Shown here piece after piece: positions 701-40,982 of a stretch of 64,000 nucleotides of DNA. The DNA is from Chloroflexota bacterium (GTDB taxonomy: Bacteria > Chloroflexota > Anaerolineae > J102). The position numbers and the translations under genes were made by a program. The stretch is taken from assembly GCA_029782215.1 (NCBI GenBank), contig JAKOVD010000022.1, forward strand, positions 5,165 through 69,164, in the 5' to 3' direction. Position 1 is the stretch's first letter, and each line of letters starts with the position of its first letter. The notes beneath the pieces were generated by a model. It saw only the letters and a list, made by a program, of their open reading frames with translations, ran no database searches and was not told where the DNA came from.

Positions 701-1992
701 TCGCCGGCCAGGTCGTCTCCGTCCTCATCTTCCTGGTGACGCTTTTCGCCATCCTCTCCGAACGCGTCCACCGCACCATCATCGCCATGGTGGGCGCGGC
801 CGTGATGCTGGTGGTCGGCATGCTGATGGGGTTCTACTCCCAGGCGCAGGCGCTGGCCGCCATCGACTTCAACACCCTCGGCCTCCTGTTGGGCATGATG
901 ATCCTGGTCCGGCTGCTGGAGCAGACCGGCTTTTTCGCCTACATTGCCATCCTCACCGGCAAGCGGTCGGGGGGCAGCCCGTGGCGGCTCCTGCTGATCC
1001 TGGGCGGGGCGACAGTCCTGCTGTCGATGGTTTTGGACAACGTCACCACGGTGGTCCTGATCGTGCCCATGGTCATCCTCATCGCCGAGATCCTGGGGCT
1101 GACGCCGCTGCCCCTGCTGATGGCGGTGGCGCTGCTCTCCAACATCGGCGGCGTGGCCACGCTGGTGGGTGATCCGCCGAACGTCCTCATCGGCTCGGCG
1201 GCGGGCCTGAGCTTCGCCTCGTTTTTGACGCACCTCGGTCCCATCATCATCGTGGCCCTGGTCGTGGCGCTGGCCATCCTGCGGCTGGTGTTCAGGCGGG
1301 AGCTGGCCGAGCGGCCGCGCCATCTGGCCGCGCTGGCCCACCTGGACGAGAAGGAAGCGCTCAGGGACCGGGACAACATGGTCAAGACGCTGGCAGTGCT
1401 GGTTGTGGTCGTCCTGGGCTTCTTTCTGCACGGCACCCTGCACCTGCAGCCGGCCACCATCGCCCTGGCGGGAGCGGCGGCAGCGCTGCTGTGGGTGCGG
1501 CCGGACGTCGACGACACCCTGCGTCACGTGGAATGGGGTGTGCTGCTGTTCTTTGCGGCGCTGTTCGTGATGACAGGCGGGCTGCAGGCTGCAGGTGTGC
1601 TGGCGCGGGTGGCGCAGGCGGTGGCAGGACTCGCGCAGGCCAATCCCCTGTGGGCGAGCCTGGTTCTCCTCTGGGCGGCCGCCCTGCTGTCGGCGCTGGT
1701 GGACAACATCCCCTTCACCATCGCCATGATCCCGGTGCTCCAGGGCCTGGGCGGCTTCGGCATTGCCGTCTGGCCCTTCTGGTGGGCGCTGGCGCTGGGC
1801 GCGGGCCTGGGCGGCAACGGCACGACGATCGGCGCCACCGCCAACGTCATCACTGTCAACCTGAGCGTCAAGACCCACCGGCCGATCACCACCGGCATCT
1901 GGCTGCGATCGGGGCTGCCGGTCATGCTGGCCACCTGCCTGGCAGCCAGCATCCTCTTTGCCCTGCTCTTCGGTTGGATGAGCACGCCATGA
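697..1992 (+). CDS. ArsB/NhaD (CitMHS/SLC13-like) family permease
   Basis: Polytopic membrane ORF. ILSERVHRTIIAMVGA, NVTTVVLIVP, GGVATLVGDPPNVLI and GGNGTTIGATANV are typical of ArsB/NhaD-type anion permeases. I chose the GTG at 697 (GTGA overlap with the CBS gene); the track ORF starts at 673. Confidence 0.8.
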   Translation: MIAGQVVSVLIFLVTLFAILSERVHRTIIAMVGAAVMLVVGMLMGFYSQAQALAAIDFNTLGLLLGMMILVRLLEQTGFFAYIAILTGKRSGGSPWRLLLILGGATVLLSMVLDNVTTVVLIVPMVILIAEILGLTPLPLLMAVALLSNIGGVATLVGDPPNVLIGSAAGLSFASFLTHLGPIIIVALVVALAILRLVFRRELAERPRHLAALAHLDEKEALRDRDNMVKTLAVLVVVVLGFFLHGTLHLQPATIALAGAAAALLWVRPDVDDTLRHVEWGVLLFFAALFVMTGGLQAAGVLARVAQAVAGLAQANPLWASLVLLWAAALLSALVDNIPFTIAMIPVLQGLGGFGIAVWPFWWALALGAGLGGNGTTIGATANVITVNLSVKTHRPITTGIWLRSGLPVMLATCLAASILFALLFGWMSTP

Positions 1993-3995
1993 ACGTGAAT
2001 GACCTGAGCGCTCAAGTCAGGCGCCGGCTCTCGCGCCTGCAGCCCTCCGGCGCCATCGTCCTGGGCGCGGTGGCGGTGATCACCGGCATGGCGACCGGGG
2101 CCGGGGTGTGGCTGTTCAAGCAGATGATCCTATGGGCCAGTGCCCTGTTCTTTGGCCGGCTCGGCGGCGCCCTGGCGCCACTGGGGGGATGGACGGTCGC
2201 CCTACTGCCCGCCTTGGGCGGTCTGGTCGTCGGGCTCCTGTGGCACCGCTTCGTGGGCGAAGAACGCTACCACGGCGTGGCCGGGATCATGGAGACGGTG
2301 GCGCTGATGGGCGGCCGGCTGGAGTACCACTTGGCCCCGGTCAAGACCGTCGCTGCCGCTCTCTCCATCGGCTCTGGCGCCTCCGTGGGTCCCGAAGACC
2401 CCTCGGTGCAGATCGGCGCCAACCTGGGCTCCTTTGCCGGCCAGAAACTGCGCTTCTCCGATGACTGGACCCGAGCGCTGGTGGCGTCGGGGGTGGCCGC
2501 CGGCATCGCTGCCGCCTTCAACGCCCCGATCGCCGGCGTCTTCTTCGCCCTGGAGATCGTGCTGGGCGAGATCAGCGGCGGCGCCCTGGGGGCCATCGTC
2601 CTGGCGGCGGTGGCGGCAGCCGTATTCACGCAGCGCGTCGCCGGGCCGGAACCCGCCTTCCACGTGCCCGCCTACGCCTTCCAGTCCGTGGCCGAGCTGC
2701 CGCTGTACATCCTGTTGGGGCTGCTGGCGGGTGGGGTGGCCACCCTGTACGTCAGCGCCCTCGATACGGCCAAGAGCTCTTTCCGGCGCTGGCAGGTCCC
2801 AAGCTGGCTGAAACCGGCCGCCGCCGGCCTGGCAGTGGGCATCGTCGGCATCTGGCTGCCGCAGATCTTCGGCGTCGGCTATGCCACCATCGACCAGATC
2901 TTCAACGGCGCGGAGATGGCAGTGCCGCTGCTGCTGGCGCTCCTGGCCGCCAAGCTGGTCATGACGGCAGTCAGCATTGGCGGCGGGTTCCCTGGGGGCG
3001 TCTTTGCGCCTTCCCTCTTCCTCGGCGCCACCCTGGGCGCTGCCTTCGGCGAGATCGCCAAGCTCCTATTTCCCACCCTGGCGATCGCCCCGCCCGCCTA
3101 TGCGATGGTGGGCATGGCGGCGGTGCTGGCGGCCTCGGTGCACGCGCCCCTGACCGCCATCCTGCTGCTGTTCGAGATGACCCAGGACTACCGCATCATC
3201 CTGCCCCTGATGTTTGCGGTGGTCGTCGGCCTGCTCCTGGAACAGCGGCTGCGCCGGGACTCGGTGTACACGCTGGCGCTCTCGCGCAAAGGCCTGCGGC
3301 TGCAGCGCGGCCGCGACATCGAGGTCCTGGAGGGCATCACGGTGGGCGAGGTGATGGAGACCGGGATGGCGACCCTGGCCGAAGGCGACACGCTGGCGGC
3401 GGCCACCGATATCCTGACCCAGACCCGCCATCACGGGCTGCCGGTGCTCAGCGCTGGCGGCGACCTGGCGGGCATTCTCACCGTCCAGGACCTGGAGATG
3501 TCGCCGGTGCGGCGTCCCCAGGCGACCACGGTGGGTGAGGTTTGCTCCCGCGACCTGCTGGTGGCCTATCCCGACGAAAGTATCGGCACGGCGCTGCGGC
3601 GGATGAGCGTGCGCGACGTCGGGCGGCTGCCGGTGGTGGCGCCCGACAACCCGCGGCGCCTGCTCGGCGTTCTGCGCCGCGTCGACCTGGTGCGGGCCTA
3701 TGACCTGGCCCTGACACGGCGGGCGCAGAACCGCCACCAGATCCAGACGGCCCGGCTCGACGTCTCCACAGGCGAGCTGAGCGTGGTTGAGATCAGGATC
3801 GAAAAGGGCGCCGTCTGTGACGGTGCGCTTGTGAGCAAGGTCGCATGGCCGCGTGACTCGGTCATCGCCAGCGTGCGCCGGCGGAACAAGCTACTCATCC
3901 CCCACGGCGACACCCGCCTGCGGGCCGGCGACGCCCTGGTCGTCGTGGCCGAAGGGGAGGCGCTGGCGGCGGTGCGGCGCCTGTGCGAGAGATAG
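1989..3995 (+). CDS. ClC-type chloride channel/antiporter with C-terminal CBS pair and TrkA_C (RCK_C) domain
   Basis: ClC motifs GSGASVGPEDP, NAPIAGVFFALE and GGFPGGVFAPSLFLG, followed by two CBS repeats and a TrkA_C-like tail (VVEIRIEKGAVCDG...LRAGDALVVVAEG). The ATG at 1989 overlaps the upstream stop (ATGA). The track ORF's extra N-terminus (1491-1988) overlaps the ArsB-like gene in another frame. Confidence 0.9.
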   Translation: MNVNDLSAQVRRRLSRLQPSGAIVLGAVAVITGMATGAGVWLFKQMILWASALFFGRLGGALAPLGGWTVALLPALGGLVVGLLWHRFVGEERYHGVAGIMETVALMGGRLEYHLAPVKTVAAALSIGSGASVGPEDPSVQIGANLGSFAGQKLRFSDDWTRALVASGVAAGIAAAFNAPIAGVFFALEIVLGEISGGALGAIVLAAVAAAVFTQRVAGPEPAFHVPAYAFQSVAELPLYILLGLLAGGVATLYVSALDTAKSSFRRWQVPSWLKPAAAGLAVGIVGIWLPQIFGVGYATIDQIFNGAEMAVPLLLALLAAKLVMTAVSIGGGFPGGVFAPSLFLGATLGAAFGEIAKLLFPTLAIAPPAYAMVGMAAVLAASVHAPLTAILLLFEMTQDYRIILPLMFAVVVGLLLEQRLRRDSVYTLALSRKGLRLQRGRDIEVLEGITVGEVMETGMATLAEGDTLAAATDILTQTRHHGLPVLSAGGDLAGILTVQDLEMSPVRRPQATTVGEVCSRDLLVAYPDESIGTALRRMSVRDVGRLPVVAPDNPRRLLGVLRRVDLVRAYDLALTRRAQNRHQIQTARLDVSTGELSVVEIRIEKGAVCDGALVSKVAWPRDSVIASVRRRNKLLIPHGDTRLRAGDALVVVAEGEALAAVRRLCER

Positions 3996-28598: not shown

Positions 28599-29864
28599 CT
28601 AGAGGGTGCGGGCGTAGGCCCGATCCAGCACCTGCACAGTGTGCAGCAGAGGGAGGGGATGTCCCAGGGCGACAAGGTGCGCCTGGATCTGGGTGAGGCA
28701 GCCGATGTTGCCCGTCGCCAGCATCTCGGCGCCCGTCGCCAACACGCTGCGCGCCTTGCGCTCGCCCAACTGGGTCGCCATTCCCGGGTGTTCCAGGTTG
28801 TAGGTCCCCGCCGAGCCACAGCAGAGATCACCGTCCGGAATCTCGACCAGGGTCAGGCCGGGGATACTGGACAGCAGGCGCCGGGGCGCCTCGCGCACCC
28901 CCTGGGCATGGGCCAGGTGACAGGCGTCGTGGTAGGCAACCTTCATCGGCCGCGCCACCTCGGGCAGCGGCGCCACGAGCCCGATTTCGTCGAGGAAGGC
29001 GCTCACGTCCTTGGTCCGACCGGCCAGAGCCGCGGCAGCATCCTCCTGCTCGGCGCCCCTGAACAAGAGGGGGTACTCCTTCATGCCCGATCCACAGCCG
29101 GCGGCGTTCGTAATAACAGCATCCACATCCGTTGGGAAAGCCTCCATGTTGGCGCGGGCCAGGCCCTGCGCCCGCCGGGCGTCACCCGTGTGCATGGCAA
29201 GGGCGCCGCAGCATCCCTGGGCAAGAGGGATGACGACCTCGACGCCGTTGGCCGCCAGCACGCGCAGCGTCGCCCAGTTGATCTCGGGCGCCAGCACCTG
29301 CTGCACACAGCCAACCAGTAGCGCCACCCGCGCCCGCCGCGTGCCCTCGGCGGGGAAGTGAGTGGGCAGGGGTCGGGTCTTGGGCAGCTTGCCCGGGACC
29401 AGGTCCACCATGGCCCGGAAATCGCCCGGCAGCACGCCCAGCAGAGGGCGCGCCAGGCGGCCCGTCCTGGCCGCCAGCCGGAAGCGACCGGGATAAGGCA
29501 CCGTTTGCTGGATGGTAAAACGCACCAGCCGTTCGGAGAGAGGACGCCGGCGCCGTTCCTCGGCCCGGGCGCGGAAAGGCATCAGCAGCTCACCGTAGGG
29601 CACACCCGAAGGACACGCCGGGATGCAGGCCAGACAGCCCAGACAGAGATCGACATAAGGAAGCGCTTCTTTGAGGGGTAGATTGCCCTCAAGGACATCC
29701 TTCATCAGCACGATGCGGCCGCGCGGGGAATCCATTTCTTCACCCAGGACCCGATAGGTGGGACAGGCGGCCAAACAGAAGCCACAGTGAACGCAGGCCT
29801 CGACGGCGTGGGCCATGGCTGCGCCCTGGGGTCCAAGCTCTGCGACAGGAATCTGATGCTGCAT
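28599..29864 (-). CDS. glcF: Glycolate oxidase iron-sulfur subunit
   Basis: Two ferredoxin-type motifs ([14 protein letters not shown] and [15 protein letters not shown]) plus two CCG-type Cys-rich repeats (...GCCG...). Confidence 0.85.
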
Positions 29865-29879
29865 GGACCTCTCTGCCTC

Positions 29880-30965
29880 CTATGCCAACCGGTTCATGGG
29901 ATCGAGCGCGGTCTTAACCCGCTGGTAGAAGACGGCCCCCGTGGCCGCGCCCAACAGCGGCTCGGCTGACGCGCCGTGGAACTGCATGCCTGCAAGCCCC
30001 AGCGCCTTGAGCTCGGCGTCGATGGTTTCCCCGGAGGATGGCCACACCACCCAGGCCACGTTGCCGCCCACGCTGTAGCGCCTGTGCGCAGCCACCGGCA
30101 GGCGAGCCTCCAGCGCGAGAATGCGGTCGGGCGTCAACGGCACCTTGAGCAGGGGCAGCCCCACAGGCGCCCATGCCATCTCCCGCTGGCGCCGCCAGTA
30201 AGCCGCCTCTTCCTCACCGTCCAGGGTGCGAAAACCCACCGCCTCGCGGCCCAGGAACTCGCGCATACGGTCCAGCCGCTGGGGAAGCACATCGGCAGGG
30301 CCGCCGATGCGAAGCCAGAGCGCCGACGTCACGGCCTCTCCCACCTCGAGATCGAGCGCCTCCAGATCGAACTGGGAAGCGGTCAGCCAGCCAAGGGCCT
30401 TGAGCGCGGCGCCGAGATCGGCGAACACAGCCTGGAGACTGGCAAAGGCGGGAGGCGCCGGAAAAACCTTGAAGGAACACTCCACCAGAATGCCCAGACG
30501 TCCGAGGCTGCCAACCATGAGTTTCGGAAAGTCAAAGCCGGCGGCGTTCTTGACCACCTTGCCGCCGCCCCGTACCAAGTTGCCTTGTCCATCCACAAAT
30601 CGGACGCCGATGACGAAATCGCGGACGCCGCCGTAGTGATAGCGGCCGGGACCGGCGGTGTTGGCGGCGATCACGCCTCCCAGTGTCGCCCCCCGTTCCA
30701 CCCACAAGGGATCGAAGGGCATGACCTGGCCATGCGCTGCCAGCATCCGTTCCACCTCGGCCACGGGCGTCGCCGCCAGCGCCGTGAACACAAACTCGCC
30801 CGGCTCATACTCGCGCACCCCGGTCAGGGCGGACAGGTCGAGCGCCGTGACGCCTTCGGGCGCCGCCGACAGGCAGGGCTTGCTGCCGCCTCCGCGCGGT
30901 CGCAGCCGCTCGTGCTCACGAACAGCCTCCTGTACTTCGGCTGGGGTCTGTGGCTGCACGCTCAT
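29880..30965 (-). CDS. glcE: Glycolate oxidase FAD-binding subunit
   Basis: FAD-binding PCMH-type domain protein (RPRGGGSK, ...NVAGYD-like KNAAGFDFPKL) located between the glcD and glcF homologues. Confidence 0.8.
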   Translation of the reverse strand: MSVQPQTPAEVQEAVREHERLRPRGGGSKPCLSAAPEGVTALDLSALTGVREYEPGEFVFTALAATPVAEVERMLAAHGQVMPFDPLWVERGATLGGVIAANTAGPGRYHYGGVRDFVIGVRFVDGQGNLVRGGGKVVKNAAGFDFPKLMVGSLGRLGILVECSFKVFPAPPAFASLQAVFADLGAALKALGWLTASQFDLEALDLEVGEAVTSALWLRIGGPADVLPQRLDRMREFLGREAVGFRTLDGEEEAAYWRRQREMAWAPVGLPLLKVPLTPDRILALEARLPVAAHRRYSVGGNVAWVVWPSSGETIDAELKALGLAGMQFHGASAEPLLGAATGAVFYQRVKTALDPMNRLA

Positions 30966-30994
30966 AGACGCCTCCTGTTCACAGCGAACCTTGC

Positions 30995-32446
30995 CTACGC
31001 CCTGCTGATCACGCCGGCGCGTTCCAGGGGATGGGGCTCATAGGTCTTGGCTCCGCCGGCGCCGGGGTCGCCGGGGAACATCTTGCCACGGTTGGCGATC
31101 TCCTTCGGGTCGATGCGCTGCCGCAGGGTCCACATGGCTTCCATATCGTCTTCGTTGAACATCTGCGGTAGAAAGGCCCGCTTCTCCATGCCAACGCCGT
31201 GTTCGCCCGTGATGGATCCCCCCATGGTGATGCACATGGCGGTGATCTCACCGGCAGCGCCCTCGGCCCGCTCGAATTCACCGGGCTTGCGGCCATCATA
31301 GAGGATAAGGGGGTGAAGGTTGCCGTCGCCGGCATGGAAGACGTTGGCGATGCGCACGTCGTACTTCCGGGACAGGCGTTGGATCTCGGCCAGCGCCTCG
31401 CCCAAGCGGCTGCGCGGAACGACGCCATCCTGGACGATGTAGTCGGGACTGAGCCTCCCCACGGCCGAAAAGGCGCCCTTGCGTCCCTTCCAGATACGCA
31501 TGCGCTCGGCATCGTTCTGGGCCACCCGGACCTCATAGGCGCCCGACTTGCCGATTACCTCCAGCAGCCGGGTGAACTCGGCCTCGACCTGCACCGTCTC
31601 ACCTTCCAGCTCGACGATCAAGAGGGCTGCGGCCTCCCGCGGGTAGCCGGCATTCACCGAAGCTTCGGCGGCCTGAATGGCCAGATGGTCCATGATCTCA
31701 ATGGCGCCGGGCAGCAACCCCGAAGCCACGACAGCGGCCACGGCATTGCCGGCGGTCTCCAGGCTGTCATAGGCGGCCAGCACCGTACGGTAGCGCTCGG
31801 GGCGGGGCACCAGGCGCAGCGTGATCTCCAGCGCCACCCCGAACAGCCCTTCACAGCCTACAAAAAGCCCCGTCAAATCAGGCCCCACCGCTTCCAGGCT
31901 TTCCCTGCCCAGGGTCACCACCTCGCCGTCCGGCAGCACGGCCTTCAATCCCAGCACATGGTTACTGGTCATGCCGTACTTCAGACAGTGGGCGCCGCCG
32001 GAATTGAAGGCGACATTGCCGCCAATGGTGCAGACCAACTGACTCGATGGGTCCGGCGCATAGTAGAGGCCGTAGGGAGCCGCCGCCTGGGATACCGCCA
32101 GGTTAACCGCTCCCGGTTCCACGACCGCCAGCCGCTGCTGCGGGTCCAGGCGCAGAATGCGATTCAGCCGGTTGAGAGCGATGACCAGCCCGCCTTCGAC
32201 CGGAAGCGAACCGCCCGACAGGCTGGTGCCGCTGCCACGGGCCACAAAGGGAATCCCGTACTGGTAGCAAAGCTTGACGGCGGCGATCACCTCTTCCTGC
32301 GTTTCCGGCAGGATGACCGCCAATGGATGGGCGCGGTAGGCGGTCAGCGCATCCGATTCATAGGATGCGAGCTGGGCCGGGCGTTCCAGCAGGCGGTCAG
32401 CCGGCACCAGGCGGGCTAACTCAGAAATGAACTCGGAACGTGCCAT
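30995..32446 (-). CDS. glcD: Glycolate oxidase subunit GlcD (FAD-linked oxidase)
   Basis: 483 aa. [22 protein letters not shown]-equivalent region, and C-terminal FAD-oxidase_C ([20 protein letters not shown]). Confidence 0.9.
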
Positions 32447-32507
32447 GCGCTACCTCCGGTTGCAGTCTGGGCGCCATCGGTCGGGACCATCACGACGCAC
32501 CATGACG

Positions 32508-34079
32508 TCAATCAAGTGCGGGATAGGCCAGATAGGTCAGAAACTCAATGAAATGGTCGCTCAGGACCAACTCGTCTACGAGCGCCGCGGCGTCGCCGAG
32601 ACGGCCGGATAGCTCGCCGCCCAGCTTCGCCAACTCCTCATCCCGCAGCCGCTGGTAGAGGCTGGCATCCACCGGCCGGCCGTCGGCAAGGGCGGTGCCC
32701 GTGTGACGCCACTGCCAGATCTGCGACCGGGAAATCTCCGCCGTCGCCGTATCCTCCATCAGGTTGTAGATGGCGGCGGCGCCATTGCCCAGGAGCCAGG
32801 CATTCAAGTACTGCAAGGCGACGCTGATGTTGTTCCGCAAGCCGGCCTCGGTGATGGCGCCGCCCTCCACACGGAACTCCAGGAGCTGCGCTGCCGTGAC
32901 CTGCACATCTTCGCGCAGCCGCTCCTTCTGGTGGTCACGCTCGCCCAGGCGTCCCTCGAAGATCGCCCAGGCCGTGGGGACCAGATCAGGGTGCGCCACC
33001 CAGGTGCCGTCAAAGCCATCACCTGCCTCCCGTTCTTTGTCTGCCCGCACGGCCGCCAGCGCCCGTTCGTTGACCTCGGGGTCTCTACGGCTGGGAATGT
33101 AGGCCGCCATGCCGCCCACGGCATGGGCCCCACGACGATGGCAGGTCTTGACGAGAAGCTGGCAGTAGGCGCGCATGAAGGGCACCGACATGGTCACCTG
33201 CGCCCGATCGGGAAGGATGAAATCGGCCCGGGTGCGGAACTTCTTGATGCAGCTAAACATGTAATCCCAGCGGCCGGCATTCAGTCCCGAGGCATGGTCG
33301 CGCAGCTCGTAGAGGATTTCGTCCATCTCAAAGGCGGCCAGGATGGTTTCGATCAGGACGGTGGCGCGGATCGTGCCACGCGCCATGCCCAAGCCATCCT
33401 GCGCGGCGTTGAAGACGTCGTTCCACAGCCTGGCTTCGAGATGGCTTTCGAGCTTGGGCAAGTAGAAGTAGGGGCCAGAACCCCGCCGGAGCAGCTCGTG
33501 GCCGTTGTGGTACAAGTAGAGGCCGAAGTCGAACAAACTGGCCGAAATCGGCTCACCGTCCACCAGAACATGCCTCTCGGTCAGATGCCAGCCACGCGGG
33601 CGCACCAGCAGGACCGCAGGATGGTCGATCAGCCGGTAGACCCTGCCGTCCGGGTTGGTGAACTCGATGCGACGCCGCACGGCATCGCTGAGATTGGCCT
33701 GCCCCAGAACCACATTGTCCCACGTGGGCGAAAGGGCATCCTCAAAATCAGCCATGAACACACTGGCGCCTGAGTTGAGCGCGTTGATCATCATCTTGCG
33801 CTCGACCGGGCCGGTGATCTCCACCCACCGCTTTTGCAGGTCCGCGGGCGTCGCCGCCACCTGCCAGTCGCCGCTGCGCACGCCAACGGTATCAGAACGA
33901 AAATCGGGGAGCTCGCCGGCGTCAAAGGCAGCCTGGCGCCGTGCACGATCTTCCAGTAGAGACAGCCGCCGCTCATTGAACCGGCGGTGCAGACCGGCCA
34001 CAAACGCCAACGCTTCCGGGATGAGAACCTCTGCGTAGTCGGCCGGAACCGGACCGATCACTTGCACACCAGGGACCAT
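32508..34079 (-). CDS. aceB: Malate synthase A
   Basis: [52 protein letters not shown] and WVAHPDLV are malate synthase A motifs. GGAGGAG RBS before the ATG at 34079. Confidence 0.9.
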
Positions 34080-34173
34080 GCGTCTTGACTCCTCCGTCTG
34101 GGTGGGGTGGTTGATTGAGATGGTAATTGTGCGTTGGATGTGCGATGAAGACAAGCCGATGGGTGAGCTTCGT

Positions 34174-35433
34174 TCAACCGAACAGGCTGGGGAACCAGGA
34201 ACTCAGCACCAGGATGACCGTCAGGCCGATCAGCACCACGGTCACCACGGCCATCACCGCGTTGAAGATGCGGCCATTGGTGAACCGGCCCATCAGGCGC
34301 CGGTCATTGACCAAGCGCAGCATGACCAGGAGAATGACAGGCAGGAGGACACCGTTGAGGGTCTGGCTGGCCAGCATGGTCCGGATCAGGGATTCAATTG
34401 GCGCAAGGATGATGGCAGCGCCCACGACGATCAACGCGGTATAGATGCCGAAGAACACCGGCGCTTCGCGCATGCTGCGGCTCACGCCCATCTCCCAGCC
34501 GAACGCCTCGCAAACGACATAGGCCGTTGACAGCGGCAGGATGGCCGCCGAAAACACCGAAGCATTGAGCAGGCCGATGGCAAAGAGCACGTAGGCATAG
34601 CGTCCGGCCAGCGGCTCCAGGGCCATGGCGGCATCCTGCGCCGATTCGATCCGGATGCCGTGGGTGAAGAGCGTCGAAGCACAGGCGATCATGATGAAGC
34701 AGGCGACCACTACGGCGAAAAGGGAACCGATGATGACATCGATACGCTCATAGGCGATATCGACGATCTTGAGTCCCTTGTCCACGATCGAGGCCTGCTG
34801 GTAGAACTGCATCCAGGGGGCAATCGTGGTACCGATGATGGTGACCGCAAGCACCAGGTACTGCGTATTCCACTGGAAGGAAGGGCTAACGAAGGAATGG
34901 GCCACTTGCTGCCAATCGGGATGCGCCAGCACGCCGGAAACAATGTAGGTCAGGAAGATGGCGCTGGCGACCAGGAAGATGCGCTCTACGCGGGCGTAAC
35001 TTCCCTTGACCATGAGAAACCAGACAAGTACGGCGGCAACCGGCACCGAAAGGTATTTGCTGACGCCAAAGAGCTCCATGCTCGCCGCCACACCGGCAAA
35101 TTCACTCACGGTGTTGGCGAGGTTGGCGATGAGCATGATGCCGATGATCAGGGCCGTCCACCGCACGCCCAGGCTCTCACGGATGAGATCGGCAAGCCCT
35201 TTGCCTGTGACGATGCCCAAGCGGGCGCTCATCTCCTGCACAAGGATCAGAGCCAGCGCCACGAGCGGCATGATCCAGAGCATGCTGTAGCCGAAATGCG
35301 CTCCGGCCACCGAATAGGTGGTGATGCCGCCGGCATCATTGTCCACATTGGCGGTGATGATGCCTGGCCCCACAACGGCCAGGAGCAGGGCGATGCGTAG
35401 GCGCAGAGGCCTGGTGCGTTGTTGCAGTCTCAT
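34174..35433 (-). CDS. Nramp-related magnesium transporter (NRMT-type SLC11 family member)
   Basis: Nramp fold ([20 protein letters not shown] in TM1; [16 protein letters not shown] in TM6). The canonical DPGN is DAGG and the canonical A-x-x-M-P-H is T-T-I-A-P-W, i.e. the N-to-G, A-to-T and M-to-A changes described for Mg2+-transporting NRMTs. Confidence 0.75.
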
Positions 35434-35457
35434 AGGATGGGCAGGACTGAAGAAGGA

Positions 35458-36705
35458 TCAGTGATAGAGTCGCGGCAGCTTCTTCTTCCAGGCCGTGGGA
35501 ATGATCTTGTCCAGGGCGTCGTCAGCCGTGACAATGCCGTGGAGACGGCGCTCGTCATCGACAACCGGCACCGCCACCAGGTTGTACTTCGAGACCGCCT
35601 GCGCGGCATCGTCCTGGCTGTCCGTCAGACTGACGGTCACGATACGGCGGTGCATGAACTGGGTGACCAGCGTGTCCGGTTCGGCCAGCACCAACTCACG
35701 CAGGGAGAAGACCCCCAAGAGCTTGTCAGTCTCATCCGTGACATAGATGTAGTAGATGGTCTCTGCGTCACGGGCCGTCTGGCGCAGGAACTCGATCGCC
35801 TGCTCGGCGGTGGTATCGGGACCGACGGCGACGAACTCCGTGTTCATGATGCCGCCCGCGCTGTCCTCCGGGTAGGCCAGCAGCTTGCGCACGTCATCGG
35901 CCTCGTCCTTCTCCATCAGGTTGAGGATGTCGGCGCTGCGCTCTTCGGGCAGCTCGGCCAAAAGGTCGGCGGCAGCATCCGGTGACATGGCCTCCAAGAC
36001 GTCGGCGACGCGCTCGTCGGACATGCTTTCCACCAGGCTGGCCTGGAAGTCAGGCTCGACTTCCTCCAGGGTTTCCGCCACGGTCTCCACGTCCAGGGAC
36101 TCCAGGAACTTGCCGCCCTCAGCGCGGGTCAGGTCGCTGATGATCTCCGCCAGGTCCGCCGGGTGCAGCTCGTTGACGATGTTCCCCGGCACACGCAGCC
36201 GGATGGGCTGTTCACCGGGCAGAAGCTCGACCTCATGCCAGGAGATCGTTGCCGCGGGCGCCCGCCGGCCCACTTGCTTGGCCATACCGCGCAGGCCCAA
36301 GCGCCGCATCAGGCCCGCAGCACTGACATCCACATTGGCGACGTAGAAATGGCTGTTGACGCGCAGCAGCTCCAGGTCGTTGACGCGCACCACACGCACG
36401 CCGTTGGTATCGATGATCTGCTTGTCAAGCACATCGCGCACCAGGAACAGATCGCTGTCCGCAGCCTGGTAGGGCTCGATATCGGCCCACCGCTTTGTCA
36501 ACGGAACGGCAGGCGCCACCAGCACCGCCACATCTGGAAAGGGGACCAGAGTGACACCGCCGCGGGAACGCTTGACGGCGATGGCAACCAGCACGGGGTG
36601 CGGAAGCTCGACATGCATCGCAGCGACCAGGTCCTCTAAGCGACCGACGCGGTTGCCGTCCACATCGGCCACCGCCCTACCAAGCAACTCACTGACGTAA
36701 GCCAT
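35458..36705 (-). CDS. Soluble PRC-barrel + MgtE N-domain + CBS-pair protein (MgtE cytosolic sensor without the membrane pore)
   Basis: Two PRC-barrel-like segments (LLGRAVADVDGNRVGRLEDLV; VLDKQIIDTNGVRVVRVNDLEL). MgtE_N segment (LHPADLAEIISDL...VADVLEAMSPDAAADLLAELPEERSADILNLM). CBS pair (AGGIMNTEFVAV...; VAVPVVDDERRLHGIVTADDALD). The protein ends where the MgtE TM domain would begin. Confidence 0.8.
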   Translation of the reverse strand: MAYVSELLGRAVADVDGNRVGRLEDLVAAMHVELPHPVLVAIAVKRSRGGVTLVPFPDVAVLVAPAVPLTKRWADIEPYQAADSDLFLVRDVLDKQIIDTNGVRVVRVNDLELLRVNSHFYVANVDVSAAGLMRRLGLRGMAKQVGRRAPAATISWHEVELLPGEQPIRLRVPGNIVNELHPADLAEIISDLTRAEGGKFLESLDVETVAETLEEVEPDFQASLVESMSDERVADVLEAMSPDAAADLLAELPEERSADILNLMEKDEADDVRKLLAYPEDSAGGIMNTEFVAVGPDTTAEQAIEFLRQTARDAETIYYIYVTDETDKLLGVFSLRELVLAEPDTLVTQFMHRRIVTVSLTDSQDDAAQAVSKYNLVAVPVVDDERRLHGIVTADDALDKIIPTAWKKKLPRLYH

Positions 36706-36893
36706 AGGTCCCCCTTTGGCGTCCGCGTACGCCCGGATGGAGGCAAGGAATGCACAGGCAAATCCATCTGGGCCGCATCACGCCGGCTCAGTTTGCTGCC
36801 TTGCGGTGGTGAATTGGAAAGCCCTGGACATCCATACAAAGAAGCGGCACGCAAACCCGCGCTGGCTACATGCGGTGGCCCAAGGACCTTCCC

Positions 36894-36899
36894 ATTATA
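36894..36899 (-). promoter_or_regulatory. Candidate -10 box (perfect TATAAT) about 190 nt upstream of the MgtE_N/CBS gene
   Basis: The minus strand reads gtgaaTATAATggg in an AT-richer intergenic region. The -35 is weak. Confidence 0.35.
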
Positions 36900-36992
36900 T
36901 TCACGTTCGGTAGTATTGACGAGTTGGGAGCACGGGGCCTGTTAGCAGCTCAAGTCATCCGCTGCGGCGTGAGGTCAATTCTTTCAAGGGAC

Positions 36993-37021
36993 TTGACCCG
37001 CATCGAAATTAGGAATAAGAT
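36993..37021 (+). promoter_or_regulatory. Candidate sigma70-type promoter for the sugar ABC operon
   Basis: TTGACC-17 nt-TAAGAT, about 140 nt upstream of the SBP ATG (37161). Confidence 0.4.
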
Positions 37022-37160
37022 TCGTGTTATGTGCGCGGTGAAAGCGCACCTTGGTCAATAGTCTGTGTCTGCACAAGGAGGCAAACCTATACTTTAGCCC
37101 CTACGTTCAGTAGCATCACGCTTGCTGTCCAACACTCAACTTCCCAGGAGAAGAAACACC

Positions 37161-38336
37161 ATGTCTCGCAAGTTGTCGTTTTCTCTGCTGTTCGTTTCGC
37201 TGATCGTCGTCGTGCTTGCCCTGGCGGCTTGCGGCGGCGCAGCGACGCCAGCAGCCCAGCAGCCGGCCGCCACCAAGGCGCCTGAAGCTGCTGCCACTAC
37301 TGCCCCCGCTGCCACCGGCGGCCCCCAGATCGGCATCGTGCTCCCGACCAAGGACGAGCCCCGCTGGATCCAGGACGAAGCCCGCTTCAAGGAACTGCTC
37401 GGCACCGCCGGCGTCCCCGTTGAGATTCTCTTCAGCCAGGGTTCCTCGGCCACTGAGAAGTCCAACGTCGAATCGCTGCTGACCAAGGGCGTCAAGGTCA
37501 TCATCCTCACGCCCCAGGACGGCGCTGCTGCTGCCGCCGCCGCCGAAGAGGCCCAGAAGGCCGGCGCCAAGGTCATTTCCTACGACCGCCTGATCCTCAA
37601 CACGCCCGCCGTCGACTACTACGTCACCTTCGACAGCAACGCCGTGGGCCGGGCCCAGGGCCAGTACCTGATCGACAAGGCCCAGGGCACAGGCAACCCC
37701 CTGTACCTCTACGCCGGCGCCGCCTCTGACAACAACGCCTTCCTCTTCTTCGAAGGCGCCTGGGACGTGCTCCAGCCCAAGATCGCCGATGGCACCTTCG
37801 TCATCAAGAACTCCGCCGAAGCCACTGCCCTCAAGGACAAGCCCAAGCTGACCCGTGACGAAATGGCCAAGATCATCGGCCAGGTCACCACGAACTGGGA
37901 CTTCAACACCGCCAAGAACCTTGCCGAGGCCAACCTGACCGTCGCCAAGCCCGAGGATAAGGGCAATGTCTTCATCCTCGCCCCCAACGACGGCACCGCC
38001 CGTGCCATCGCCGATGCCTTCGCCGCCGACAAGGACGTGAAGAGCTACGTCGTCACCGGCCAGGACGCCGAAAAGGCCTCCGTCCAGTACATCATCGACG
38101 GCAAGCAGTCGATGACCGTCCTCAAGGACACCCGCACCCTGTCCAAGGACGCCATCGCCGCCGCCCTGGCGTTCCTCAAGGGCCAGACCCCTGAGAAGAC
38201 CACCACCTACAACAACCAGAAGATCGACGTGCCGGCCAAGCCGTCCGAGGTCATCACGGTTGACAAGGCCAACGTCAAGCAGGCGATCGTCGACTCCGGT
38301 TACTGGCCTGCCGATGCCTTCACCGGCCTGCAGTAA
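37161..38336 (+). CDS. Sugar ABC transporter substrate-binding lipoprotein (ChvE/multiple-monosaccharide type, class I PBP fold)
   Basis: Lipoprotein signal MSRKLSFSLLFVSLIVVVLALAACGG, an Ala/Pro/Thr tether, then IGIVLPTKDEPRWIQD...VISYDRLI...YYVTFDS...TGQDAEKASVQYI. AGGAGAAG RBS. Confidence 0.9.
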   Translation: MSRKLSFSLLFVSLIVVVLALAACGGAATPAAQQPAATKAPEAAATTAPAATGGPQIGIVLPTKDEPRWIQDEARFKELLGTAGVPVEILFSQGSSATEKSNVESLLTKGVKVIILTPQDGAAAAAAAEEAQKAGAKVISYDRLILNTPAVDYYVTFDSNAVGRAQGQYLIDKAQGTGNPLYLYAGAASDNNAFLFFEGAWDVLQPKIADGTFVIKNSAEATALKDKPKLTRDEMAKIIGQVTTNWDFNTAKNLAEANLTVAKPEDKGNVFILAPNDGTARAIADAFAADKDVKSYVVTGQDAEKASVQYIIDGKQSMTVLKDTRTLSKDAIAAALAFLKGQTPEKTTTYNNQKIDVPAKPSEVITVDKANVKQAIVDSGYWPADAFTGLQ

Positions 38337-38357
38337 GCGATAACCGTTCGTTCGCAC

Positions 38358-38393
38358 AGGAAAGGCGACGACCCGGGGGCCGTCGCCTTTCCT
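38358..38393 (+). promoter_or_regulatory. Intercistronic stem-loop between the SBP and ATPase genes
   Basis: aggaaaggcgacg-acccgggggc-cgtcgcctttcct: perfect 13-bp stem with no U-run. Hairpins at this position in ABC operons typically stabilise or partially terminate the SBP message. Confidence 0.5.
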
Positions 38394-38429
38394 CTACTCC
38401 CCGGATAATCTTGGCTCGCAGGAGGTGTA

Positions 38430-40982
38430 ATGGCTACTCCCATCCTGGAAATGAGGAACATCACCAAGACGTTCCCTGGGGTCAAGGCGCTGGACAACGT
38501 GACCTTCAGCGTTGCCCAAGGTGAGATCCACTGCCTGGTCGGTGAGAATGGGGCGGGGAAGTCCACCCTGATGAAGGTGTTGAGCGGGGTGTGGCCTTAT
38601 GGAAGTTACACAGGGGATATCCTGTTTAGCGGCGAGGTCCAGAAGTTCAACGGCATTGCCGACAGTGAGAGAGTCGGCATCGCCATTATCTACCAGGAGC
38701 TAGCGCTTTTTCCTGAACTCAGCGTTTACGAGAACATCTTCCTCGGACACGAGGTCAGAAAGGGCGCTTTGGTCGACTGGAATGAGACGATCAAGCAAGC
38801 AGGCGTGATGCTGAAAAAGGTCAGGCTCGACGTCAATCCGGCGGCGAAGATCAAGGATCTGGGCGTTGGCAAGCAGCAGTTGGTGGAGATCGCCAAGGCC
38901 TTGAGCAAAGACGTCAAGCTCCTGATCCTGGACGAGCCGACAGCGGCCTTGAACGAGAATGACAGCGAGAACCTGCTGAATCTTCTGCGCGAGCTGAAGG
39001 AACACGGCGTGACCTGCATCATGATCTCGCACAAGCTAAGAGAGGTCATCTCCATCGCCGACACGGTCACCGTCCTGCGCGATGGGCAGACGGTCATCAC
39101 CCTGGATGCGCACAAGGGCGAAGTGTCCGAACAGGTCTTGATCAAGCACATGGTTGGTCGCGAGATCAACAACATCTATCCGTCCCGGCAGCGCAACCCG
39201 TTCAGGACTGCGGCTGCCGCCGTGGAAGCCGCCAAGGCGGCGGGCGTCAAGGTCATCTCTTACGACCGGATGATCACCGACACCAAGGCGATCGACTACT
39301 ATGTGACCTTCGACAGCCTCGCCGTCGGCGCGCAGCAGGCGCAGTACCTGGTAGACCATGCTACGGGCAAGGGCAACCCTCTCTATCTGTATGCCGGCGC
39401 CCCGACCGACAACAACGCCTTCTTCTTCTTCCAGGGCGCCTGGGGGGTCTTGCAGCCCAAGATCGCCGATGGCACTTTTGTGATCAAGAATTCAAGCCAG
39501 GCCGTCGGCCTCCAGGCGAACGCTACCCTGACGCGCGACCAGATCAGCGCGATCTTCGGCCAGATCGCCACCAACTGGGATCGCAACACCGCCAGGAACC
39601 TGGCACAGTTCAACGTGACCTCCGCCACCGCGGCCGACAAGGGCAATGTCTTCGTTCTCGCGCCCAACGACAACACCGCACGTGCCATTGGCGATGTCTT
39701 CGCTGCCGACAAGGACGTCAAGAGCTTCCTGATCACCGGCCAGGACGCCGAGGAAGCGTCCGTCCAGTACATCCTGGACGGCAAGCAGTCCATGACTGTC
39801 TTCAAGGACGTGCGCGTCCTGGTGCAGGCCGCAACAGATGCCGCGGTCACCCTGCTGAAGGGGCAGGCTCCTGCCACCAACGGGAGCTACGACAACGGTG
39901 CGGTAGCTGTCCCCGCGCTCCAGGCCCCGGTCGTGTCAGTGGACAAGGCAAATGTTCGGGCCCTTCTGGTGGACTCAGGCTATCACAAGGCCAGCGACGG
40001 CGCTGGTGCGAGCACGCCGGCATCCTCAGGCCATCCGGCCGTCGGGATCGTGCTTCCGACCACAGAGGAGCCGCGCTGGATTCAGGATCAGGCTCGCTTC
40101 CAGAAGGCGTTCAAGGCCGCCGGCTACGACGCCGAGATCCTCTTCAGCCAGGGCGATGCCGCCAGGGAGAAAGCGAACGTCGAAGCGCTGGTTGCCAAGG
40201 GTGTCAAGGTCCTGCTCATCTGCCCGCAGGGTGGTGGAGAAGTCGTCCTTGAAGTCAAAAACTGGAGCGCCTACAACCCCGCCCTGGGCAGGCAAATCCT
40301 CCAGGACGTGAATATTAACGTCAAGAAGGGTGAGATCGTGGGCTTTGCGGGTCTGATGGGGTCGGGGAGGACGGAGCTCGCTCTCAGCTTATTCGGCAAT
40401 CCCACCAGCTTCCATGTCAAGGGTGATCTTTTCATCAACGGCAAGAAGCACACCTTCAAGAAGCCCGAAGATGCCATCGACGCCGGTCTGGCCTATGTCA
40501 CCGAGGACAGGAAGGCCAAGGGGCTGATTCTGATCCAGGATGTCAAGCGGAACATCACCCTGGCCAACCTCTACGAGATCGCCAGCCGCGGTGTGGTGGA
40601 CAACAACGCCGAGGTCAGGGTCGCCACTGAGTATCGCAGCAGTCTCAACATCAAGACTCCCAGCGTCGAGCAAAAGGTCGGGAATCTGAGCGGCGGCAAC
40701 CAGCAGAAGGTTTCGTTGGGCAAGTGGTTGTTCGTCAAGCCCAACGTGCTCATCCTGGATGAACCGACGCGCGGAATCGATGTCGGGGCGAAGTATGAGA
40801 TCTACACGCTCATGAACCGGTTGGTGGAGCAGGGCATGAGCATCATCATGATCTCGTCCGAATTGCCCGAAGTCCTTGGGATGAGCGATCGAGTCTACGT
40901 TGTTGCTTCCGGCAGGATCACCGGCGAGCTGCCGATCGAGGAAGCAACCCAAGAGAAGATCATGCAGCTGGCAACCAGCTAA
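38430..40982 (+). CDS. Sugar ABC transporter ATP-binding protein (tandem NBD, GguA/XylG/MglA type) with a ~344-aa circularly permuted SBP-fold domain inserted between NBD1 and NBD2
   Basis: Uninterrupted 850-aa ORF. NBD1 (aa 1-258): GENGAGKST, LLILDEPTAAL. NBD2 (aa ~603-850): GLMGSGRTE, LSGGNQQK, LILDEPTRGIDV. Residues 259-602 are not ATPase-like and are paralogous to the upstream SBP. Confidence 0.85.
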   Translation: MATPILEMRNITKTFPGVKALDNVTFSVAQGEIHCLVGENGAGKSTLMKVLSGVWPYGSYTGDILFSGEVQKFNGIADSERVGIAIIYQELALFPELSVYENIFLGHEVRKGALVDWNETIKQAGVMLKKVRLDVNPAAKIKDLGVGKQQLVEIAKALSKDVKLLILDEPTAALNENDSENLLNLLRELKEHGVTCIMISHKLREVISIADTVTVLRDGQTVITLDAHKGEVSEQVLIKHMVGREINNIYPSRQRNPFRTAAAAVEAAKAAGVKVISYDRMITDTKAIDYYVTFDSLAVGAQQAQYLVDHATGKGNPLYLYAGAPTDNNAFFFFQGAWGVLQPKIADGTFVIKNSSQAVGLQANATLTRDQISAIFGQIATNWDRNTARNLAQFNVTSATAADKGNVFVLAPNDNTARAIGDVFAADKDVKSFLITGQDAEEASVQYILDGKQSMTVFKDVRVLVQAATDAAVTLLKGQAPATNGSYDNGAVAVPALQAPVVSVDKANVRALLVDSGYHKASDGAGASTPASSGHPAVGIVLPTTEEPRWIQDQARFQKAFKAAGYDAEILFSQGDAAREKANVEALVAKGVKVLLICPQGGGEVVLEVKNWSAYNPALGRQILQDVNINVKKGEIVGFAGLMGSGRTELALSLFGNPTSFHVKGDLFINGKKHTFKKPEDAIDAGLAYVTEDRKAKGLILIQDVKRNITLANLYEIASRGVVDNNAEVRVATEYRSSLNIKTPSVEQKVGNLSGGNQQKVSLGKWLFVKPNVLILDEPTRGIDVGAKYEIYTLMNRLVEQGMSIIMISSELPEVLGMSDRVYVVASGRITGELPIEEATQEKIMQLATS
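39204..40235 (+). other. Embedded circularly permuted periplasmic-binding-protein (SBP) domain inside the ABC ATPase ORF
   Basis: aa 259-519 (nt 39204-39986) align with the SBP from AAAAAEEAQKAGAKVISYDR to its C-terminal VDSGYW. aa 520-537 form a Ser/Gly/Ala/Pro linker. aa 538-602 (nt 40041-40235) align with the mature SBP N-terminus IGIVLPTKDEPRW...KGVKVIILTPQDG. No signal peptide, no internal stop, in frame at both junctions. Confidence 0.8.

Follow-up and report, generated by a model that had tools for sequence, protein, structure and literature searches.

Why should the gene for an Nramp-type metal transporter lie directly behind a gene for the magnesium-sensing half of an MgtE channel that has lost its pore? 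The question arises from a minus-strand locus in a 64,000-nucleotide stretch of Chloroflexota DNA (the window), in which a first-pass annotation had described a magnesium-type Nramp transporter (NRMT) and, 24 nt upstream, a soluble MgtE-like sensor suggested to act on it in trans. Both open reading frames, their separation and the coordinates of the two metal-site motifs were confirmed (Table 1). We consider it almost certain that the two proteins are what they appear to be, an NRMT and a pore-less PRC-MgtE_N-CBS protein (the partner).

Table 1. Features of the transporter-partner locus in the window
Feature	Position	Strand	Evidence
NRMT-type SLC11/Nramp transporter gene, 419 aa	34174..35433	-	ORF; Pfam Nramp; EleNRMT match
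TM6 motif G201-T-T-I-A-P-W207 (GTTIAPW), aa 201-207; canonical Nramp G-A-T-V-M-P-H	34813..34833	-	Identical to EleNRMT G223-W229
TM1 metal-site motif D33-A-G-G36 (DAGG), aa 33-36; canonical Nramp DPGN	35326..35337	-	Aligned to EleNRMT D55/G58
24-nt spacer between partner and transporter genes	35434..35457	-	ORF positions
Soluble pore-less MgtE-type protein gene, 415 aa; PRC-PRC-MgtE_N-CBS-CBS-basic tail	35458..36705	-	ORF; Pfam; structure matches
Conserved basic C-terminal tail IPTAWKKKLPRLYH, where MgtE has the acidic plug helix	35461..35502	-	Conservation in homologues
CBS pair, about aa 285-401	35503..35853	-	Pfam; 2yvy/2yvx match
MgtE_N domain, aa 180-281	35863..36168	-	Pfam; 2yvy/2yvx match
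Second PRC barrel, about aa 86-170, with inserted helical hairpin; holds invariant stretch RDVLDKQIIDTNGVRVVRVNDLEL	36196..36450	-	hhalign; Foldseek; conservation
First PRC barrel, about aa 1-80	36466..36705	-	Pfam PRC; profile; AF2 pLDDT 92; Foldseek 8qzo
Promoter-like site TCGTCA-17-TATAAT, about 190 nt 5' of the first gene, weak	36894..36922	-	Sequence match

The transporter is of the NRMT type

The SLC11/Nramp (LeuT-type) fold spans the full length of the transporter, as judged by the Pfam profile PF01566 (E=1.6e-100; aa 37-387 aligned with positions 1-356 of 357). Among solved structures, EleNRMT of Eggerthella lenta (PDB 7qia/7qic) was the top match, aligning end to end with 7qia (aa 12-406, E=8e-121), followed by 10ky (1.6e-31) and by MntH structures at about 1e-24 or weaker. 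The NCBIfam MntH model and the TIGR nramp model fell far under their cut-offs, with 155 bits against 430 and 65 bits against 272, respectively. On these sequence comparisons the transporter clearly belongs to the NRMT clade, which is sister to the canonical Nramps, and not to the Mn/Fe transporters of the MntH type, in agreement with the first-pass annotation.

The metal-site substitutions on which that annotation relied are real, and both motifs are identical to those of EleNRMT. In TM1 the Asp (D33) is retained and the Asn is replaced by Gly (G36), giving D-x-G-G, and in TM6 the Ala has become Thr (T202) and the Met has become Ala (A205). The alignment pairs D33, G36, T202, A205, W207, E111 and Q357 with D55, G58, T224, A227, W229, E133 and Q379 of EleNRMT, and the Thr at position 224 is needed for Mg2+ (Ramanadane et al. 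2022, eLife, PMC8806188). The proton-pathway histidines of helix 6b are lost; W207 stands where canonical Nramps have one of them, at the position of W229, and the second helix-6b position holds Gln212 here versus Asn234 in EleNRMT. EleNRMT transports Mg2+ and Mn2+ electrogenically and uncoupled from H+, and is active alone in liposomes; it was studied alone and no partner was discussed (PMC8806188). The NrmT of Clostridium acetobutylicum, also alone, rescued a Bacillus subtilis strain deficient in Mg2+ transport (Shin et al. 2014, PLoS Genet, PMC4072509). By analogy with these two proteins, the transporter in the window would likewise move Mg2+ without proton coupling. NRMTs constitute the fourth class of prokaryotic Mg2+ importers.

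The partner is an MgtE cytosolic module without a pore

The C-terminal part of the partner matched MgtE_N (PF03448, aa 180-281, E=5e-29) and two CBS domains (PF00571, E=1e-20) in Pfam, and aa 172-402 matched the cytosolic-domain structures of the Thermus thermophilus MgtE channel, 2yvy and 2yvx (E=6e-41), bearing out the reading of a soluble protein with an MgtE N domain and a CBS pair. The two PRC-barrel-like segments that had been noticed ahead of these domains also held up. PRC (PF05239) scored 26.2 bits, above its cut-off of 21.2; the PDB structures matched by a profile of the N-terminal region were all PRC barrels; and hhalign aligned the two halves of the region with each other (probability 83%, E=9e-6). 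An AlphaFold2 model of aa 1-175 made with a diverse alignment of 66 sequences had a pLDDT of 92; aa 1-174 stayed under 50 when the full-length partner was modelled from 20 close homologues. With the aa 1-175 model, the best Foldseek match was to the tandem PRC barrels of CdpB1/CdpB2 (8qzo; E=1e-6, TM 0.58-0.66, both barrels aligned), followed by 8onw, 1pm3, RimM and reaction-centre H subunits; single PRC barrels rank after the tandem proteins. CdpB1/CdpB2 (8qzo, 8onw) are archaeal cell-division proteins in which, as in aa 1-175 of the partner, PRC barrels in tandem form a protein-protein interaction fold, but they are only 14-15% identical to the partner, have no MgtE_N or CBS domains and serve an unrelated biological role.

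The MgtE membrane domain (PF01769) had no Pfam match in the partner, nor is there room for it, as the open reading frame stops 13 aa past the second CBS domain. The TIGR00400 match covered only model positions 25-252 of 450 and, at 194 bits, stayed below the cut-off of 232.75. The partner lacks a transmembrane pore and is therefore not a channel. The protein had been described as the whole sensing assembly of MgtE, and this stands for the N domain, the CBS pair and the missing pore. It fails at the C-terminus, where the acidic plug helix (E258 and D259 of the T. thermophilus protein, TtMgtE, at sites Mg2 and Mg3) is absent and the basic tail IPTAWKKKLPRLYH takes its place. This tail is near-invariant among the close homologues of the partner, and most lineages have basic tails; the tandem PRC N-terminus, an addition relative to TtMgtE, is near-universal among partners.

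The same PRC-PRC-MgtE_N-CBS cytosolic architecture is found in PRC-MgtE channels that are full-length, at about 595-656 aa (for example L007 742-2535, P0283, P0309 and P0340), but these retain PF01769 and so gate their own pore in cis. Such channels are likely to be the evolutionary source of the pore-less partner, or its sister.

Five of the six TtMgtE Mg2+ ligands that could be mapped in the N and CBS domains are kept in the partner of the window. In MgtE_N, E211, D243 and D247 correspond to E59 (Mg7), D91 (Mg4) and D95 (Mg6); in the CBS pair, D396 and D399 correspond to D247 (Mg4) and D250 (Mg5), and N375 occupies the position of D226. Across 63 partners, numbered by TtMgtE, Asp was found at position 95 in 62, at position 247 in 51 and at position 91 in 49, while an acidic residue was present at position 59 in 53 and at position 250 in 42. 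The D226 position (Mg5) is usually Asn.

The pairing is conserved across phyla

The genome survey that the first-pass annotation had called for covered 80 related NRMT loci, 76 of them informative for adjacency of the partner. The partner directly adjoins the NRMT in 66 of the 76 and lies within 4 kb in 68: immediately upstream on the same strand in 62, immediately downstream on the opposite strand in four, and about 1.1 kb upstream in two. Seven of the 76 loci had no partner within 4 kb. The 76 loci span Chloroflexota, Bacillota, Desulfobacterota, Acidobacteriota, Omnitrophota, Planctomycetota, Nitrospirota and a Methanocellaceae archaeon. A functional link between the partner and the NRMT is, in our judgement, highly probable.

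Fusions of sensor and NRMT were found neither among the 150 best PRC-module proteins nor among 240 listed homologues. One candidate, P0180 (646 aa), was rejected, as Nramp is its sole Pfam match and a separate sensor was called on the contig of the same length. The named nearest homologues of the proteins in the window are from Anaerolineae/Chloroflexota.

Operon layout and the M-box

The spacer between the two genes holds no terminator-like site, from which we infer their co-transcription. An Rfam search of positions 33500-38500 gave no riboswitch at E<=1, the sole match being a chance miRNA, and the M-box (RF00380) was missing from the window in Rfam at E<=1 and with an M-box profile in nhmmer. 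The region 5' of the sensor gene showed no conserved leader when compared by blastn with the 80 related loci, where only an identical copy matched, and the 190-nt leader folded no better than shuffled sequences (z=0.5).

In at least 11 of the 80 related loci, an M-box precedes the operon or the transporter. Ten complete copies scored 107-151 bits, and one cut by the contig end (L050) scored 58 bits. Two of the loci bearing an M-box, L013 and L011, encode transporters 72% and 70% identical to that of the window. The association, seen in the sequences of these relatives, points to Mg2+ as the ion to which the NRMT-partner pair is tied. The Acidobacterium capsulatum pair likewise has no M-box, which is thus not obligatory.

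Relation to published pairs

Both the gene pair and the idea of regulation in trans have been published, and the present locus is an ordinary further instance. Shin et al. [quoted passage not shown] Their pairs (the C. acetobutylicum Ca_c0685 operon and A. capsulatum Acp2976/Acp2977) share with the window the transporter clade and the type of upstream gene. The differences are that their partner is a 'small protein' with PRC barrels unmentioned, whereas that of the window has 415 aa with tandem PRC barrels and a basic tail; that the C. acetobutylicum partner is split over two genes, whereas ours is a single gene; and that the window pair, unlike theirs, comes from an uncultured Chloroflexota-like genome. 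Mg2+ rescue was no better when the A. capsulatum partner was co-expressed, and the transporter of that pair moved mainly Mn2+ (PMC4072509). Beyond the 2014 paper, we found no literature on NrmT with MgtE, on PRC barrels with MgtE, or on MgtE with Nramp and CBS. [quoted passage not shown] The survey thus defines the architecture of the partner and the MgtE Mg2+ sites that it has retained or lost.

A proposed mechanism and its alternatives

We propose that the two genes form an operon in which the NRMT would import hydrated Mg2+, along with Mn2+, driven by the membrane potential and without proton coupling, as its homology to EleNRMT suggests. The partner amounts to the Mg2+-sensing cytoplasmic portion of a PRC-MgtE channel with the pore removed. 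Cytoplasmic Mg2+ would bind to the conserved acidic sites that lie between its N domain and its CBS pair, and would change its conformation as in the cytosolic domain of MgtE; the Mg2+-bound partner would then use the PRC barrels, the basic tail or both to dock on the transporter from the cytoplasmic side. Docking would stop uptake, providing negative feedback on a transporter that itself lacks a regulatory domain. The explanation as a whole, an NRMT with a Mg2+ sensor supplied in trans, has in our estimate an even chance of being correct. Its central step, Mg2+-dependent feedback inhibition by the partner in trans, falls slightly short of that.

Gating of the transporter by a Mg2+ sensor in trans is a plausible idea that agrees both with the M-box association and with the conservation of the Mg2+ ligands. 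We put forward only tentatively the more specific notion that the partner is a detachable Mg2+ gate, in which the regulatory half of a channel is re-used as a trans-acting shut-off for an SLC11/LeuT-fold transporter and the PRC barrels or basic tail serve for docking; we lean somewhat against it. In its favor, the PRC-MgtE_N-CBS module also heads MgtE channels (about 600 aa), in which the cytosolic domain gates the pore, and the NRMT is uncoupled and electrogenic. Against it, the partner is missing the plug-helix ligands of Mg2 and Mg3, which in MgtE link sensing with the pore. The usual Asn at the D226 position, the seven loci lacking a nearby partner, the lack of sensor-NRMT fusions among the 150 best PRC-module proteins and the missing M-box of the window also count against feedback in trans. 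MgtE is dimeric, whereas NRMT has been studied as a monomer. NRMTs do not need the partner for transport: C. acetobutylicum NrmT complemented alone and EleNRMT was active alone in liposomes. The sole published co-expression test read rescue at low Mg2+, an assay blind to a feedback inhibitor; since such an inhibitor is not expected to improve rescue under low Mg2+, the A. capsulatum result is weak evidence against a gate. If feedback in trans is true, an MgtE sensor domain would for the first time be shown to regulate a transporter other than MgtE, and Mg2+ homeostasis would gain a new regulatory principle. It would also explain why the cell is not overloaded by a Mg2+ importer that is uncoupled and driven by the membrane potential.

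The conserved adjacency and the conserved acidic metal sites would also suit a partner with a positive role, as an activator, as a subunit for assembly or stability, or as a chaperone taking Mg2+ or Mn2+ from the inner vestibule of the transporter. Free cellular Mg2+ is millimolar, however, and a Mg2+ chaperone therefore seems unnecessary. The chaperone idea has been put forward in print (PMC4072509), but NRMT transport is robust without a partner in vivo and in liposomes, and the co-expressed partner did not improve rescue (PMC4072509), so we rate a positive factor as unlikely. A comparably small probability goes to a partner that senses another signal, either Mn2+ or adenine nucleotides or Mg-ATP at the CBS pair, and tunes the transporter to it. 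Such a partner would agree with the mainly Mn2+ transport of the A. capsulatum pair (PMC4072509), with the Mn2+ also carried by EleNRMT, and with the Asn that mostly replaces the Mg5 ligand D226; on the other side, co-regulation by the M-box points to Mg2+, and the best-conserved residues of the partner are the Mg4, Mg6 and Mg7 carboxylates of MgtE. Adenosine ligands are common at CBS pairs, and ATP modulates MgtE itself, which would also favor another signal.

It is less probable still that the partner acts elsewhere, either pairing as a heterodimer with a full-length (PRC-)MgtE, at the cytosolic domain of that channel, or using its PRC barrels to signal to some other machine, with the NRMT merely co-expressed in a Mg2+ regulon. 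RimM, the reaction-centre H subunit and CdpB1/B2 all use PRC barrels for protein-protein contacts, the PRC-PRC-MgtE_N-CBS module also heads full-length MgtE channels, and one locus (L007) has such a channel right beside the pair. That MgtE neighbor, however, occurs in one locus only, whereas the tight adjacency across phyla is specific to the NRMT. Very improbable, finally, is the absence of any functional relation, with the gene order simply inherited or the partner a decaying MgtE remnant. The published co-expression test without effect (PMC4072509) would agree with this, but intact partner frames of 407-432 aa are kept in an archaeon and in bacteria of many phyla, with near-invariant motifs and a conserved tail, and the gene order persists despite changed orientation.

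Identity of the gene pair

The gene pair, from an uncultured Chloroflexota-like genome, is a new instance of a pair that was published in 2014. Both ORFs lie exactly where the first-pass annotation had placed them, on one strand and 24 nt apart, and its positions for the DAGG and GTTIAPW motifs of the transporter were also correct (table below). No terminator-like site was found between the two genes, and a promoter-like site (TCGTCA-17-TATAAT) is located ~190 nt 5' of the partner gene, the first of the two; co-transcription is the likely arrangement.

Features of the window and of surveyed NRMT loci (coordinates are those of the window or of the named locus)
Feature	Coordinates	Strand	Description
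Partner gene	35458..36705	-	ORF, 415 aa
Transporter gene	34174..35433	-	ORF, 419 aa
DAGG motif	35326-35337		transporter aa 33-36
GTTIAPW motif	34813-34833		transporter aa 201-207
Glycolate-utilization cluster	28599-34154	-	four genes
Sugar-binding protein gene	37122-38336	+	
ABC ATPase ORF	38430-40982	+	850 aa
L007 (Ktedonobacterales MAG)	742-2535		full-length PRC-MgtE, 597 aa
L028 (Elusimicrobia MAG)	3356-3958		tandem PRC module alone, 200 aa
L029	3536-3702		M-box directly 5' of NRMT
L033	3582-3748		M-box directly 5' of NRMT

The transporter has a full-length Nramp fold (PF01566, E=1.6e-100). Its top match among all PDB sequences was the Eggerthella lenta NRMT (EleNRMT, 7qia; E=8e-121 over aa 12-406), followed by a second match at 1.6e-31 and by MntH structures at 1e-24 or weaker, and it scored far under the cut-offs of both the NCBI MntH and the TIGR nramp models. 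At the level of sequence similarity, a place among the Mn2+/Fe2+ MntH proteins is thereby excluded. In the alignment with EleNRMT, the TM1 aspartate is retained (D33, EleNRMT D55), G36 (G58) stands in place of the canonical Asn and A205 (A227) in place of the canonical Met, W207 and Q212 (W229 and N234) occupy the positions of the proton-pathway histidines, and E111 (E133) and Q357 (Q379) are conserved. T202 corresponds to T224, whose substitution by alanine abolished Mg2+ transport in EleNRMT (PMC8806188). EleNRMT transports Mg2+ and Mn2+, not Ca2+, without proton coupling (PMC8806188), and by homology the same behavior would be expected of the transporter in the window.

Architecture and origin of the partner

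Pfam assigned to the partner an MgtE_N domain at aa 180-281 (E=5e-29) and a CBS pair (E=1e-20); its PRC-barrel match was weak yet above threshold. MgtE cytosolic-domain structures matched the partner over aa 172-402 (E=6e-41). The MgtE membrane domain is absent; the protein ends 13 residues past CBS2, and the mgtE equivalog model aligned only over positions 25-252 of 450, under its cut-off. AlphaFold2 with 20 close homologues left the N-terminal 170 residues unmodelled, and with a diverse 66-sequence alignment it modelled aa 1-175 at pLDDT 92. The top PDB fold match of this model was the tandem PRC-barrel CdpB1/CdpB2 (8qzo, E=1e-6, TM 0.58-0.66), in an alignment that takes in both barrels, followed by the single PRC barrels 8onw, 1pm3, RimM and reaction-centre H subunits. 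In the PDB, a profile built on 28 diverse partner N-terminal regions matched PRC-barrel proteins only, and the two N-terminal halves align to one another (hhalign local probability 83%, E=9e-6). Together, these results establish that the two PRC-barrel-like segments proposed earlier are real.

A search with partner aa 1-170 against 1.84 billion representatives returned 1567 proteins at E<=1e-3. Fragments aside, the best 150 of these fall into two length classes, ~400-440 aa (pore-less) and ~593-656 aa, the longer having the same PRC-MgtE_N-CBS module followed by the MgtE membrane domain (PF01769). The pore-less partner is thus equivalent to the cytosolic half of the channels in a PRC-MgtE subfamily. 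At locus L007, a full-length MgtE with the Pfam membrane domain and the same tandem PRC N-terminus lies directly upstream of an NRMT gene and its pore-less partner, and about ten further PRC-MgtE proteins of roughly 600 aa were present in the representative search. No sensor-NRMT fusion (~830 aa expected) was seen among the best 150 of the 1567. A 646-aa gene call (P0180) has an Nramp Pfam match only, and a separate 415-aa partner (P0032) lies on a size-matched contig; P0180 is probably an over-extended start and not a fusion.

Mg2+ sites retained and lost

The Mg2+ sites of Thermus thermophilus MgtE (TtMgtE; Maruyama et al. 2018) were transferred to the partner by alignment and tallied over 63 partners. 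The ligands E59 (Mg7; E211 in the window, acidic in 53/63), D91 (Mg4; D243, Asp in 49/63), D95 (Mg6; D247, Asp in 62/63), D247 (Mg4; D396, Asp in 51/63) and D250 (Mg5; D399, acidic in 42/63) are kept. At D226 (Mg5) the window has N375, and only 9 of the 63 have Asp, most having Asn. Unlike TtMgtE, the partner has neither the membrane domain nor a counterpart of the plug-helix ligands E258 and D259 (Mg2, Mg3), in whose place stands the short tail IPTAWKKKLPRLYH, nearly invariant among close relatives and basic in most lineages. The N/CBS 'clamp' of the sensor is thus retained and the part coupling it to the MgtE pore replaced, and the first-pass description of a 'whole' MgtE sensing assembly stands corrected.

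Conservation of the pairing

In a scan with one genome per species, NRMT-like peptide patterns yielded a selected set of 80 NRMT loci (the best 80 of at least 590 matches) from many phyla, one archaeon among them. All ORFs were searched with HMMs built from the families of the window, and four loci without upstream DNA were set aside. An MgtE_N-CBS partner lay directly upstream on the same strand in 62 of the remaining 76 loci (three truncated at a contig end, one apparently frameshifted), directly downstream on the opposite strand in 4, and ~1.1 kb upstream in 2; one locus (L028) had a PRC-PRC ORF only, and in 7 the partner was absent within 4 kb. The pairing is therefore conserved in related genomes, with adjacent partners in 62 + 4 of the 76. 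Complete partners measured 407-432 aa, none with a membrane tail, and all but the apparently frameshifted L026 had the PRC region. Protein databases hold more than 7000 partner relatives, the top 120 all being 414-444 aa with PRC, MgtE_N and CBS; many lie on contigs equal in length to those of transporter homologues, probably the same ones. At L028 the gene before NRMT lacks MgtE_N and CBS, a weak hint that the link to the transporter may reside in the barrels by themselves.

M-box riboswitches (RF00380) precede the operon, or a partner-less NRMT, in at least 11 of the 80 loci, scoring 107-151 bits for ten complete copies and 58 bits for L050, truncated at a contig end. This is a lower bound since only 31 loci were run through Rfam, the others being screened with an nhmmer profile. 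Among the 11 loci with an M-box are L013 and L011, with transporters that share 72% and 70% identity with that of the window. Of the seven loci that lack a partner, two (L029 and L033; Peptococcaceae/Acididesulfobacillus) have an M-box; L019 and L051 have M-box and partner together, and the window has the partner alone. Riboswitch and partner thus look like layers of control that can be separated. The window contained no M-box or other Rfam match, and its leader is neither conserved nor unusually stable.

Possible role of the partner

Shin et al. (2014; PMC4072509) named NrmT and showed Mg2+ complementation. They also reported that most members of the NrmT group have a neighboring gene related to the cytoplasmic part of MgtE, and suggested that its product exerts feedback control on NrmT (PMC4072509). 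The first-pass annotation, right in its identification of the two proteins, therefore rediscovered a published observation and hypothesis. Our additions are modest: the true architecture of the partner, its relation to PRC-MgtE channels, the Mg2+ sites retained and lost, and a quantified co-occurrence. The partner goes unmentioned in the 2022 work on the EleNRMT structure (PMC8806188), and our literature search found neither later work on it nor a paper linking PRC barrels to MgtE.

We tentatively favor, with slightly less than even confidence and by analogy with MgtE, feedback in trans: the partner would bind cytoplasmic Mg2+, close as the MgtE cytosolic domain does, and in the closed form dock onto NRMT, blocking uptake. 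An importer of divalent cations that is uncoupled and runs on the membrane potential would need a brake such as CorA and MgtE possess, and NRMT itself lacks a cytosolic domain. The PRC barrel is a protein-docking fold, and the barrels and basic tail are obvious candidates for the contact.

That the partner is instead an activator or chaperone seems doubtful, and NRMTs transport without it (PMC4072509, PMC8806188). In the one pair tested, from A. capsulatum, co-expression brought no gain in Mg2+ rescue (PMC4072509); this does not bear on feedback inhibition, as an inhibitor would not raise rescue at limiting Mg2+. The A. capsulatum transporter rescued mainly Mn2+ transport (PMC4072509), and sensing of Mn2+ or nucleotides by the partner is about as doubtful as activation. 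A target other than NRMT, be it MgtE or something else, we consider unlikely, and it is highly improbable that partner and NRMT, so often adjacent, are functionally unlinked.

Neighboring genes

Directly 3' of the transporter gene and on its strand, genes for malate synthase, a GlcD-like FAD oxidase, another FAD-binding subunit and an Fe-S/CCG subunit make up the glycolate-utilization cluster. The longest malate synthase ORF begins 19 nt past the NRMT stop; in an identical Logan contig, gene callers place the next start 95 nt past the transporter. The 850-aa ORF encodes an ABC ATPase of the two-domain sugar type, its ATPase halves separated by an in-frame segment of a sugar-binding protein. 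This insert is circularly permuted relative to the binding protein encoded just upstream (aa 272-521 against aa 148-397, 65% identity; aa 490-603 against aa 38-135, 46%), and could be a genuine domain insertion, a tandem-paralogue recombination or an assembly chimera.
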